Virus record (IMG/VR): IMGVR_UViG_3300035101_000063
Reading direction: 5' to 3' (one strand)
From: a virus
Length of the DNA: 26,943 nucleotides
Shown: positions 6,140 through 26,943 of the stretch, in pieces
Layout: each line of letters begins with the position of its first letter
Position numbering within the stretch: the first letter of the stretch is position 1
Notes under the pieces: generated by a model
What the model was told of the DNA's origin: nothing
What the model saw: the letters and a program-made list of their open reading frames with translations, nothing else
Databases searched by the model: none
Translations under genes and position numbers: made by a program

Positions 6140-6153
6140 CGAACTCGAGTTCG
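6140..6153. repeat. perfect palindrome CGAACTCGAGTTCG (copy 1 of 3)
   Basis: Exact 14-mer; intergenic, between stop of 6189..6749 and start of 5747..6118. Confidence 0.9.
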
Positions 6154-8962: not shown

Positions 8963-10202
8963 CTAATATCCTATCCAATAAAATCTTCCTAAGCTTTTCG
9001 AAAGTAGCTGGTTCTTCTATTCTAGCCATAGCATCCTTTTTTCTAGTATATTTTTCATTACCAACATACCATGTCTTATTTGAACCATCTCCAACTTCTC
9101 TATACATATTTAATTTAGAAGCCATACCAATAACATATTTTAATTCATCTATTTTTCCAGCATTATCCCCTGCAATCCACATATAATAACTACCCATTTG
9201 TTTTGCAGGTGCCGTCTTGTTCTTTTCGGTCTTATAACTAACTTTCACTCTAGTACCAATTTCAGACATCAAATCCTTACCAAAAATATCCTTATCTTGT
9301 TCCTCTTTAGTCCATTTTGATGTCCAAAAATTTACAATTGTACTAGCAAAAAACAATTGTCCTTTTCCTGATGTCATCACACGATTATCACCGAATGATG
9401 ACCCACCAATTTTTTCCCTAAATTGATTTATCCAAATATGTGTTGGTGCTCTACCTTTTGACTTCATAACAGAAGTAATACTAGATAACACTTTCCTAAT
9501 AAACTTATTCATCAGTCTCGCTTGCAATCCTTGTTGCCATTCAGCTAAACTATTCTCAATTTCTGCAGATGGTGTCATAGCAGCAATAGAATCAAGCACA
9601 AACAAATCAATTTCTCCAGTTCTTACTAAACTCTCATATATATCACATACCTCCTCTGTTGTTTCAGCTTGAACATACAATAATCTACGAATATCAACAC
9701 CCAATTTTGCAGCCCATACCTTATCAAATGTCCCTTCTGGGTCAAAAAATACAACACTAAATTCTTCATACGAATTTTCTTTATATCTTTCTAATCGTTT
9801 TTTAAAATCAGATTCTTTTTCATCATCATACTTAATAGGCTTAAAAATCCCACGACTAAAACAATCACACTTTCCTTCTGCACTCCAGTATGTATCACCT
9901 TCTGAATCAACAACTTCTGAAACACTCAAATCTTTTACTGGCCTATAACAATTTGCACATATATTTTGAGCAAGTCCTATTACCCGTAAAGCATTTGTTG
10001 TCTTTCCAGATGATTCATCTCCAGCAAAAATAGTTGTTCTACCAACAGCAATACCACCACCTAATGCCCTATCAAAAGATAAACTACCTGTTGACAATCT
10101 AGGTATATTCTTAACAGAACCAGCACTACCAATTGTTCCAGAACCATGTTCTTTGTTGATCAATCTCTTAAGCACTGAAAGGCCAGGACGCTTTGTGTCC
10201 AT
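8949..10202 (-). CDS. recA: RecA-family recombinase with about 68-aa Cys4 insertion
   Basis: IPRLSTGSLSFDRALGGGIAVGRTTIFAGDESSGKTT aligns with E. coli RecA [35 protein letters not shown]. Later FFDPEGTFDKVWAAKLGVDIRRLLYVQAETTEE...LDSIAAMTPSAEIE aligns with RecA [24 protein letters not shown]...VDSVAALTPKAEIE. Between them lies a CANCYRP...GKCDC insertion. Confidence 0.8.
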   Translation of the reverse strand: MDTKRPGLSVLKRLINKEHGSGTIGSAGSVKNIPRLSTGSLSFDRALGGGIAVGRTTIFAGDESSGKTTNALRVIGLAQNICANCYRPVKDLSVSEVVDSEGDTYWSAEGKCDCFSRGIFKPIKYDDEKESDFKKRLERYKENSYEEFSVVFFDPEGTFDKVWAAKLGVDIRRLLYVQAETTEEVCDIYESLVRTGEIDLFVLDSIAAMTPSAEIENSLAEWQQGLQARLMNKFIRKVLSSITSVMKSKGRAPTHIWINQFREKIGGSSFGDNRVMTSGKGQLFFASTIVNFWTSKWTKEEQDKDIFGKDLMSEIGTRVKVSYKTEKNKTAPAKQMGSYYMWIAGDNAGKIDELKYVIGMASKLNMYREVGDGSNKTWYVGNEKYTRKKDAMARIEEPATFEKLRKILLDRILDGKI

Positions 10203-13969: not shown

Positions 13970-13985
13970 GCGAACTCGAGTTCGC
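13970..13985. repeat. perfect palindrome GCGAACTCGAGTTCGC (copy 2 of 3)
   Basis: Exact; intergenic between DnaB-like gene stop and SSB-like gene start. Confidence 0.9.
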
Positions 13986-21369: not shown

Positions 21370-21383
21370 CGAACTCGAGTTCG
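21370..21383. repeat. perfect palindrome CGAACTCGAGTTCG (copy 3 of 3)
   Basis: Exact; intergenic between lysin-like gene stop (21387) and next start (21355). Confidence 0.9.
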
Positions 21384-26097: not shown

Positions 26098-26430
26098 TTA
26101 TCTTTTTCGCCAATATTGCTTTCTACTTTTCTTCTGAGTAGACATCCTCTTCAATGCAGTTTCTTTTCTCCAACCAAATCCAGTCCATTTAGCATATGGA
26201 TACTTATCCCGTATATTTGCCCATACAAACATACCCTTACTAGGGGCTCTCAAAAACCTATTATAAATTTGCTCTTGTACATTCGAATATCTATATACTG
26301 TACTACGTTGACCTTTCTCACTAGGCAAAAATTGAATATACAAATATCTCTTCTTTGGATCATATCCAACCGCTTCAACATTAGAGCTTTCTACAGAAAC
26401 TAAAGTTGGTACTGTTGCTGGAAGTTTCAT
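26098..26430 (-). CDS. KTSC-domain protein with basic C-terminal tail
   Basis: VSVESSNVEAVGYDPKKRYLYIQFLPSEKGQRSTVYRYSNVQEQIYNRFLRAPSKGMFVWANIRDKYPY matches the KTSC pattern (S.i..vgYd...l.v.F.......YrY.nVp...y..f..A.SkG.yf...Ir..Y). Weak TTTAAA-16-TATAAT promoter-like element just upstream (about 26449-26476). Confidence 0.55.
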   Translation of the reverse strand: MKLPATVPTLVSVESSNVEAVGYDPKKRYLYIQFLPSEKGQRSTVYRYSNVQEQIYNRFLRAPSKGMFVWANIRDKYPYAKWTGFGWRKETALKRMSTQKKSRKQYWRKR

Positions 26431-26943
26431 AACAAATATTATTACTCAATTATAATACAAAATCAACATTTTTAAAATCCAATTCCTTTTCTGCTCCAAT
26501 CCCTTCTATTCCTTTTCTGCTCTTCTACATTTTGCTCTGCAATGCTCTATTCTGTTCCATATCACTTCACATCAGTTCAATTCCTCTCGAATCCTTCTCT
26601 GCTCGAATCTATTCTCTTCCTATCTTTTCCTTTTCCTCTATAACCTATTCACTTCGACTCCGTTCTTCTCCACACCATTTCTTATCACTTCCGTTCCCAT
26701 CTAATCCTTTTCTAACTTTTCCAAACTGATCAACTCAACTCCATCTCCGCTCGACGCCTTTCCTTTCCCTTCCATTTTATTTCCATTCAATTCCAGTGTT
26801 CTCTATTCCTTTTCCTCTCTCAACCAATCGCCTCAACACAGATCCATTTCGTCTCATCTCAGTTCATGTCAGGACTAATCCTTATCCTTTCATCTCAACT
26901 AGCGTCTATTCCCTTCCTTTTCAGTTTAGCTCAAGTCCGTTCT
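26431..26943. repeat. roughly 500-nt ORF-free polypyrimidine (plus) / polypurine (minus) tract with degenerate short repeats ((A/T)TTCCTTTTC(T/C)(G/T)C at least 3 times); GGA/AGGA-dense on the minus strand
   Basis: Plus strand here is almost exclusively C/T with very few G. The only track ORF is an S/L/F/P junk frame. All neighbouring genes point away from it. Confidence 0.7.

Follow-up and report, generated by a model that had tools for sequence, protein, structure and literature searches.

A gene-free pyrimidine tract in a phage sequence, read as part of a VIPR-type guide RNA array

Introduction

What kind of element is a gene-free, pyrimidine-rich tract of some 500 nucleotides (nt) that runs to the very last base of a phage sequence? 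The question is raised by IMG/VR virus record IMGVR_UViG_3300035101_000063, a stretch of 26,943 nt referred to here in its whole length as the window, in which the tract occupies positions 26431-26943. A preliminary description, made from the letters alone, had proposed a sponge RNA for CsrA/RsmA, a genome terminus, a replication origin or H-DNA structure, or a long Shine-Dalgarno (SD)-rich leader. Our computational analysis leads elsewhere: the tract, read on the minus (gene) strand, very probably belongs to a guide array (vrRNA type) of a VIPR system, of which it forms the distal part. This reading rests on the anatomy of the repeat, its pattern of conservation, the RAMP fold predicted for the protein next to it and the fact that gene and array are invariably linked, each of which is documented below.

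VIPR (Viral Interference Programmable Repeat) is a phage system of RNA-guided DNA recognition first described in 2026 (bioRxiv 10.64898/2026.04.26.720920). As the text of that preprint presents it, the system pairs a phage-encoded ancestral RAMP, Vipr (~20 kDa, with an RRM, a G-loop and a thumb), with vrRNAs, which are tandem YNNGG pentanucleotide repeats in long intergenic regions flanking vipr (10.64898/2026.04.26.720920). Vipr binds the conserved GGY and polymerises on the guide RNA, NN pairs with double-stranded DNA (dsDNA) under a one-nucleotide-skip rule, and the natural targets are competing phages, satellites and prophages (10.64898/2026.04.26.720920). Seven VIPR types are listed there, with consensus forms NNNGG, YNNNG and NNNNG and with staggered (overlapping vrRNAs), ribozyme-interspersed and single-vrRNA loci; little sequence similarity is reported among the RAMPs; and VIPR is proposed as the ancestor of CRISPR RAMP effectors and as a minimal programmable DNA-binding platform (10.64898/2026.04.26.720920). 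The type II vrRNA is ~100 nt long, with 9-16 repeats followed by a conserved, structured, pseudoknotted 3' tail (10.64898/2026.04.26.720920), and type II is known from work on Escherichia phage SUSP1 and on a prophage of Pseudomonas fulva (10.64898/2026.04.26.720920, 10.64898/2026.04.26.720927). The companion structural preprint describes a helical filament with one protomer per repeat, in which an Asp-Trp-Arg set of the G-loop contacts two guanines and the pyrimidine (10.64898/2026.04.26.720927).

A strict five-nucleotide repeat on the gene strand

On the plus strand, positions 26480-26943 (~465 nt) are the most pyrimidine-rich part of the window, with a C+T content of 75.0% (A 84, C 158, G 32, T 190) as compared to a window mean of 58.1% (standard deviation 4.6% in 200-nt windows); the window maximum, 78%, falls inside the tract. 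The tract noted in the preliminary description is therefore real, whereas the C+T content of 85-90% given there was overstated, the value being 72.5% over 26431-26943. Its GGA density holds up as well. The complementary TCC occurs 32 times in the tract, or 62 per kb compared with 21 per kb elsewhere, and the minus strand carries 31 GGA in 464 nt, which is only ~1.4 times the expectation from composition. TTCCTT is enriched 13-fold, and the repeated motif that had been pointed out is present as two exact copies of ATTCCTTTTCTGCTC at 26482-26496 and 26508-26522.

Two properties had escaped the preliminary description, namely a phase-coherent periodicity of 5.1 nt and the cutting of the tract by the window edge. 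Fourier power at ~5.1 nt reaches 15.95 in 26501-26900 compared with at most 3.1 in every other 400-nt window, and 1000 shuffles that preserved dinucleotide composition all stayed below the observed peak. In the arrays compared here, autocorrelation is highest at lags of 5, 10, 26, 31, 36, 41, 72 and 77 nt, which are multiples of 36/7. A Viterbi parse of the minus strand from 26942 to 26475 resolves into 91 units with zero phase breaks, 74 of which begin with GA or GGA; a second parse of the window array gave 76 pentamers and 14 hexamers. We describe the element (26480..26943, minus strand) as a pentanucleotide-repeat array, the 3' half of a putative vrRNA array; its 91 units are each 5 or 6 nt long, their consensus is (G)G-A-N-N-N, and the window edge cuts the array on its 5' side.

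The hexamers, which carry an extra G, add a second level of order. Their commonest spacing is 36 nt in the window, in the near-identical contig L003 and in the more distant contig L246, and the pentamer preceding each hexamer is conserved, giving the junction GAAA(A/T)|GGA in the window (consensus also GAAAA|GGAAT). Hexamers placed mostly every 36 nt, each after a conserved pentamer, indicate that the array is built of modules of ~7 units. Four such modules follow one another at 26774..26917 (minus strand), with hexamer starts at 26917, 26881, 26845, 26809 and 26773, exactly 36 nt apart; each has one hexamer GGAnnn and then six pentamers GAnnn, the last of them a conserved GA(A/T)A(A/T). Two more consecutive 36-nt modules lie at 26559..26630 on the same strand (hexamers at 26630, 26594 and 26558). 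The last module of the array, 26482..26522 (minus strand), is short and has at either end an exact copy of the junction motif GAGCAGAAAAGGAAT (26482-26496 and 26508-26522), which on the plus strand is the TTCCTTTTCTGC of the preliminary description. Each 36-nt module is a candidate individual guide unit with ~7 protomer-binding repeats, and the GAAA(A/T)|GGA junctions that recur every ~36 nt probably delimit individual guides of ~7 repeats.

The window ends inside the array

Directly beside the tract lies a KTSC gene (26098-26430, minus strand), the protein of which is encoded on 22 read contigs. In all ten of the places listed for these contigs (nine with DNA, L001-L009), the sequence does not stop where the window does but runs on. 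Contigs of up to 40 kb, with longer ones on record, carry the locus in their interior, between co-directional genes. The window is identical to L003 where the two overlap. In near-identical contigs the array continues beyond the window edge for ~460-550 nt, up to the stop codon of a gene for a Cas7-like protein of 243 amino acids (aa), and the purine-rich region of the gene strand measures 0.9-1.0 kb; in relatives it reaches up to 1.45 kb. In L001 this region spans 9035-10000, between the 243-aa gene and the KTSC gene, with the same orientation on both sides. The window holds only the 3' half of the element, and the complete array strings together 170-280 repeats without interruption and without tails.

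Further material came from the downstream 233-aa protein, whose homologues led to three more contig groups. In L246 (67% protein identity) a ~1.45-kb tract is attached to the 3' end of the upstream gene and is followed by R2K and KTSC genes, and L250 and L251 carry tracts of 1.2 kb. L247 (46% identity) lacks the tract, the upstream gene and a small open reading frame (ORF) before that gene, all three together, and this joint loss points to the upstream gene as the tract's partner. Searches of viral contigs were less productive: the KTSC protein found no relatives there, and exact ATTCCTTTTCTGCTC returned 116 single chance matches, which are uninformative. Gapped GAAAAGGA in three copies was also tried in viral contigs; the regions inspected, the 19 most purine-rich of those that matched, were ORFs fitting E/K-rich coding repeats, many of them in giant-virus bins, and were set aside as not being analogues.

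Assemblers break inside the array, as seen from the 100-N scaffold gaps within it in both L250 and L251 and from the end of the window itself, so that short-read assemblies yield minimum values for its length.

Strains differ in the array by block indels of 56 to ~70 nt. Between L246 and the window lineage (MAFFT blocks), tract identity is 75%, and the differences are unevenly spread: divergence is 12-15% at the G and A positions and 31-37% at the three N positions, compared with 32% at four-fold degenerate sites of the flanking genes. As judged from these alignments, the G and A positions are conserved and the N positions diverge like four-fold degenerate sites.

The array is non-coding and predicted to be unstructured

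A protein-coding tract was considered and ruled out. Stop codons occur throughout all three minus-strand frames, and for that strand the earlier statement that the tract contains no credible ORF is correct; it did not extend to the plus strand, where one frame is open from ~26728 to the window end. This pyrimidine-strand frame (26728-26943, plus strand, running on outside the window) corresponds to the 156-aa antisense call of relatives. Gene callers annotated antisense ORFs of 156-205 aa at L001 9221-9691, L250 7522-7992 and L252 7470-8087 (all minus strand), and they also called ORFs of 30-76 aa on the sense strand of the array. The 156-aa antisense ORF is uncalled in the near-identical contigs L003 and L007. 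Since stops are rare on the purine-poor strand and the calls vary between near-identical strains, the antisense and sense ORF calls over the array are composition artefacts. Periodicity at 3 nt is weak, with a power of ~0.35-0.8 in windows mainly within the tract.

Neither inverted nor mirror repeats were found in the tract. Rfam, at permissive (E<=10) and gathering thresholds, gave no match in the window tract or in any array, neither a hammerhead nor any other ribozyme, and a similarity search of GenBank phages for near and distant DNA relatives gave no match to the window. Folding of the minus-strand array RNA returned a minimum free energy z-score of +0.66, with 77 of 100 shuffles folding at least as well. 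The array RNA is predicted to be unstructured, as is expected for a protein-coated guide. The view that survives from the preliminary description is that of a non-coding tract whose minus (gene) strand is the informative one, the best reading being an RNA in which a short protein-binding motif recurs many times.

The neighbouring protein models as a Cas7-like RAMP

The gene that adjoins the array lies outside the window (L001 8303-9034) and encodes 243 aa, at the lower end of the protein's range of 243-256 aa. The protein has no sequence match in Pfam, PHROG or PDB. Its database homologues, proteins of ~200 aa, number 6,403 at E<=1e-3, and no Pfam domain occurs among the 120 best homologues listed. 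In 40 aligned members a C-terminal motif, the G-loop GLGQWRNSGKG, is invariant or nearly so. An AlphaFold2 model built on a 40-sequence alignment (pLDDT 82, pTM 0.77) was compared with known structures using Foldseek, and the 50 best PDB matches all come from RAMP backbones of the Cas7 family or from chains of the Csm/Cmr complexes concerned, chiefly type VII Cas7 and type III-A Csm3, together with a III-B Cmr chain, with E from 2.8e-7 to ~1e-4 and a probability of 1.00. The model has a long beta-hairpin at residues 145-169, and the best viral structure match is annotated as a 'Cas system-associated RAMP superfamily protein'. By this comparison the neighbouring protein models as a Cas7/Csm3-type RAMP with a G-loop.

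At the sequence level we compared the family profile with Vipr using hhalign. Against the single SUSP1 Vipr the alignment is full-length and colinear (E 0.0024, probability 12%); in the profile-profile comparison against 34 SUSP1-clade proteins only a 36-column region around the G-loop aligns (E 8e-4, probability 24%). Here GLGQWRNSGKG(I/R)(Y/F) aligns with the SUSP1 Vipr G-loop GVGDWRPRFGRF, and the present family keeps the W and R with which SUSP1 Vipr touches the second guanine and the third base (contacts from 10.64898/2026.04.26.720927). The weakly kept first G of the present repeat matches an Asp-to-Gln change at the G-loop position that reads that guanine in SUSP1.

Two smaller features accompany the gene. 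A basic (K/R-rich) ORF of 60-66 aa with a zinc-ribbon-like CxxCG...CxxCT pattern is found at L001 8101-8301, L246 6379-6564, L250 6349-6531 and L252 4918-5109, directly preceding the Cas7-like gene in three of these four loci; in L252 an R2K gene stands in between. This is the small ORF that L247 lacks along with the gene and the array. It has no family match and no clear homologue beside distant family members, and is a candidate for an accessory gene like the vap genes that adjoin vipr in VIPR systems. Between the stop of the Cas7-like gene and the first repeats, L001 carries a strong stem-loop (9058-9080, CGCCCCAT-TAA-ATGGGGCG) with no T-run. It bears substitutions in other strains and is deleted in L007, and is therefore not essential.

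Gene and array occur together in unrelated phages

Homologues of the RAMP protein with 38-66% identity occur in unrelated genomes. The contexts examined were those of L254/L255 (a 63%-GC temperate phage), L258 (a 56%-GC phage), L256 (a TARA ocean contig), L252, L257 and four GenBank records of uncultured human-gut phages. A 5.1-nt periodic array adjoins the RAMP gene in 11 of 11 homologue lineages, from 32 to 63% GC and in virulent as well as temperate phages, and it lies downstream of the gene on the sense strand in all lineages but one. The array region is gene-free or mis-annotated in every homologue context. The neighbours of these loci are phage replication, methylase or tRNA genes or integrase/repressor modules, the array of temperate L254 coming just after replication-initiator genes, and no cas genes or CRISPR repeats were found within ±10 kb at any locus. 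In L258 the array is closed on its sense strand by a canonical intrinsic terminator, followed by a promoter; a terminator in this place implies that the region is transcribed.

Six independent arrays were compared directly. Whatever their GC content, they share a Fourier peak at 5.12-5.18 nt together with a harmonic at 2.57, and the array power is 11-19 in five of the six compared with a 95% shuffle maximum of ~3.6. The array of L252 is weaker, with only the 2.56-nt harmonic (5.6) exceeding the shuffle level. A Cas7-like period of 6 nt had been anticipated and is absent. A cyclic hidden Markov model describes the unit as G-A-N-N-N in low-GC phages (G 81-91%, A 85-87%) and as G-C-N-N-N in high-GC phages (G 85-92%, C 67-73%). 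The extra G of the hexamers occurs in 12-22% of units across arrays (12-15% in low-GC arrays), and the junction in high-GC relatives reads GCAA(A)|GGC or GCGAA|GGA.

Comparison of L247 (8187-9574) with L001 (7593-10000) further shows that the small ORF, the Cas7-like gene and the array behave as one indel cassette, with a phosphoesterase gene on one side and the R2K/KTSC genes on the other. L246 and L252 differ in where this cassette stands with respect to the R2K gene, a hint that it moves.

A proposed mode of action and its relation to VIPR

Taken as a VIPR system, the locus would work as follows. The array would be transcribed on the minus strand, with the adjacent vipr gene or just after it. 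The RAMP would polymerise along the array RNA, one protomer to each 5-nt repeat, sequestering the conserved G-A (G-C in high-GC relatives) and leaving the variable N positions exposed. The transcript might be cut, or simply read, in modules of ~7 repeats, and the N positions would then read gapped dsDNA sequence of competing phages, satellites or prophages and bring about silencing.

The likeness to type II VIPR extends to four features that define VIPR systems. The phage encodes a small, stand-alone protein predicted to be a RAMP, in which an RRM core is combined with a G-loop (GxGxWR...G) and, as thumb, a long beta-hairpin; the context is viral and non-CRISPR, with neither cas genes nor a CRISPR array nearby; the gene is flanked by a long intergenic region of tandem 5-nt repeats on its own strand; and fixed and hypervariable positions alternate within these repeats, here with (G)GA/NNN, and in high-GC relatives (G)GC/NNN, in the place of GGY and NN. 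The same approach also re-found the SUSP1 locus, with vipr at KT454805.2 28474-29061 (minus strand) and GGTNN arrays in both flanking intergenic regions.

Several observations weigh against an assignment to VIPR. The first concerns the window itself, in which the vipr-like gene is not seen; for the window's own molecule it was inferred from contigs that are identical or near-identical to the window in the overlap. The sequence homology to validated type II Vipr is weak (hhalign 12-24%) and, at the probability of 24%, limited to the G-loop. The repeats differ too: in place of the type II GGYNN the present unit is (G)G-A-N-N-N, with A for the pyrimidine and with one G per unit strongly fixed. 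In SUSP1 the change of GGY to GGA is among the GGY perturbations described as abolishing silencing (10.64898/2026.04.26.720920), and the pyrimidine pocket of Vipr sterically excludes purines (10.64898/2026.04.26.720927). Nor did Rfam or folding reveal the conserved structured 3' tail of type II, a pseudoknot or a ribozyme, and in length the present array exceeds a type II vrRNA by a factor of 10-20. Finally, a gapped target search of 160 kb of related and unrelated phage loci, with spaced seeds and seven pairing rules, gave no excess over shuffled guides, a null result that is uninformative in view of the small size of the database.

Further differences from type II are the three free positions per unit as compared to two, the continuous 0.9-1.45 kb array of ~36-nt modules and the protein length of 243-256 aa as compared to 195 aa. 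Among the other VIPR types, the G-C-N-N-N of the high-GC relatives L254 and L258 is the listed YNNNG form, whereas the window's low-GC lineage, with A in 85-87% of units at the Y position ('ANNNG'), lies outside the consensus forms listed in the preprint text. The head-to-tail 36-nt modules resemble the staggered arrays as that text describes them, the end of one unit being the start of the next.

Compared with the backbones of class 1 CRISPR systems (Cas7/Csm3/Cmr4 on CRISPR RNA), the protein has the same fold and, by inference, would seat one protomer on each short segment of RNA. The present system differs in its period of 5 nt (occasionally 6) as compared to 6 nt, in being phage-encoded and in having no repeat-spacer units, no Cas5, Cas6, Cas10 or Cas11 partners and no adaptation genes. 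A more remote parallel is provided by the sites bound by TRAP in the Bacillus trp leader, (G/U)AG triplets spaced 2-3 nt apart, of which 11 repeats are bound on a closed ring. They share with the present array a 5-6-nt period of a short G/A motif and one protein subunit per repeat; here, however, 170-280 repeats lie beside a RAMP gene, and the protein family is unrelated.

The tract is most probably explained by a system published in 2026. What it adds is a fixed dinucleotide unlike that of type II, a modular array that is very long and has no tails, and a protein family of great size. Tentatively, and with less confidence than we place in the VIPR assignment itself, we suggest that the present lineage may be a distinct VIPR variant with a code of its own: the purine A in the pocket that in the characterised Vipr excludes purines, one fixed guanine, three free bases per repeat, and tail-less seven-protomer guides of ~36 nt, up to ~40 of them in an array of up to 1.45 kb. 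If this were so, the pairing rule, with its numbers of bases read and skipped in each repeat, the processing and possibly the geometry of the filament would differ from the published 'NN + 1-nt skip'. The fixed dinucleotide GA of AT-rich phages and GC of GC-rich phages, the hundreds of repeats and the large protein family with its marginal similarity to type II offer a natural series for working out how the binding pocket sets the repeat consensus and the number of bases read per repeat. Such arrays can be found from sequence alone by their sharp Fourier peak at ~5.1 nt. They are also an annotation hazard, being mis-annotated as antisense ORFs and broken by assemblies.

Alternative explanations

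The alternative that survives best, although we consider it unlikely, keeps the partnership of RNA and Cas7-like protein and gives up the guides. The array RNA would bind the protein without targeting DNA, either as the scaffold of a long ribonucleoprotein filament or as a decoy for the Vipr or Cas7 of competitors or for host type III/I CRISPR, which is to say as an RNA anti-defence. A continuous, tail-less run of 170-280 repeats suits such a role, the neutral rate of the N positions fits 'unconstrained' as well as it fits 'hypervariable guide', and the 160-kb search found no targets. On the other hand, the regular recurrence of junction motifs, one every ~36 nt, points to processing into discrete units, a decoy would do without N combinations that differ by the hundred, and the same pairing of protein and array is presented as a guide system in the text of the VIPR papers (10.64898/2026.04.26.720920, 10.64898/2026.04.26.720927).

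An element acting at the level of DNA is considerably less probable still. Under this heading fall a genome terminus or packaging site, a replication origin, an iteron array and an H-DNA tract, and they draw some support from the length of the non-coding region upstream of an early/replication gene block, from its strongly asymmetric strand composition and from the position of the L254 array right after replication-initiator genes. The preliminary description's terminus was refuted by the comparison with relatives, in which the tract is internal and sequence continues into co-directional genes. Its origin or H-DNA structure is not supported: at 75% purine the tract is too impure for a triplex, mirror and inverted repeats are lacking in it, and 5.14 nt is not a helical repeat. 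Every array examined adjoins the RAMP gene, in unrelated phages and whatever the neighbouring module, and is sense-downstream of it in all but one; one of them is closed by an intrinsic terminator, implying transcription. An R-loop origin and a Chi cluster, considered from composition only, were dropped because the arrays are so strictly tied to the RAMP gene and because one of them is closed by a terminator.

Hardly credible is the sponge RNA for CsrA/RsmA, or for another host RNA-binding protein, that had been suggested first. Like the CsrB/RsmZ sponges, the array is a non-coding RNA, on the sense strand, with many copies of a short GGA-containing purine motif (31 GGA in 464 nt). Those sponges, however, expose GGA at the loops of hairpins and follow no fixed period, whereas the present RNA is predicted to be unstructured, so that its GGA triplets have no hairpin loops (z = +0.66), and is strictly 5-nt periodic. 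GGA is only slightly above expectation, no Csr/Rsm family of Rfam matches, and the conserved signal is a G-A at a strict 5-nt period, replaced by G-C in high-GC relatives, that co-varies with, and always accompanies, a phage RAMP gene rather than tracking a host factor. The variant in which the RNA would act as an SD sponge or anti-SD was dropped on similar grounds, the motif being a 5-nt G-A (or G-C) period rather than AAGGA.

A functionless, degenerate satellite or decayed sequence is just as improbable, for although block indels separate strains and scaffold gaps lie inside the array in two assemblies, its G and A positions are two to three times better conserved across lineages than four-fold degenerate sites, and the same periodic architecture recurs with different sequence from 32% to 63% GC.

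The remaining proposal, a long SD-rich leader, is refuted by a promoter-like site. A sigma-70-like promoter, TTTAAA-16-TATAAT, lies at 26449..26476 on the minus strand, downstream of the tract and outside the repeat element, where it marks the array's 3' boundary and would serve the block of KTSC and methyltransferase genes that follows. L001 has this site as well, at 9955-9982.

Other features of the window and its relatives

A perfect palindrome, GAACTCGAGTTC, extended to GCGAACTCGAGTTCG, occurs in the window at 6141-6152, 13972-13983 and 21371-21382, three copies where none is expected by chance. All three of these copies of GAACTCGAGTTC fall within short gaps between genes, with a start codon 8-30 nt downstream, and none is followed by a T-run; a fourth lies outside the window in L001 (~9430-9445), in the non-periodic middle part of the array. 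The palindrome may serve as an operator or as a hairpin in RNA processing.

A cluster of ten tRNA genes occupies L246 373-1632, ~6 kb upstream of the array, with one of them scored as tRNA-Sec at threshold. A cluster of this kind probably explains other gene-free gaps upstream in L001 and L247.

All credible genes of the window are on the minus strand, and the GC skew of the plus strand is uniform and strong, from -0.2 to -0.75. The genes form an early/replication module with KTSC, two DNA methyltransferases, Cpn10, DnaB and UvsX, and a KH-domain protein and an IstB-like loader are called at syntenic positions of near-identical and related contigs. The phage is without a close GenBank relative, its DnaB being at most 29% identical, and the longest contigs on record for relatives' proteins, of 149-188 kb, suggest a large genome.

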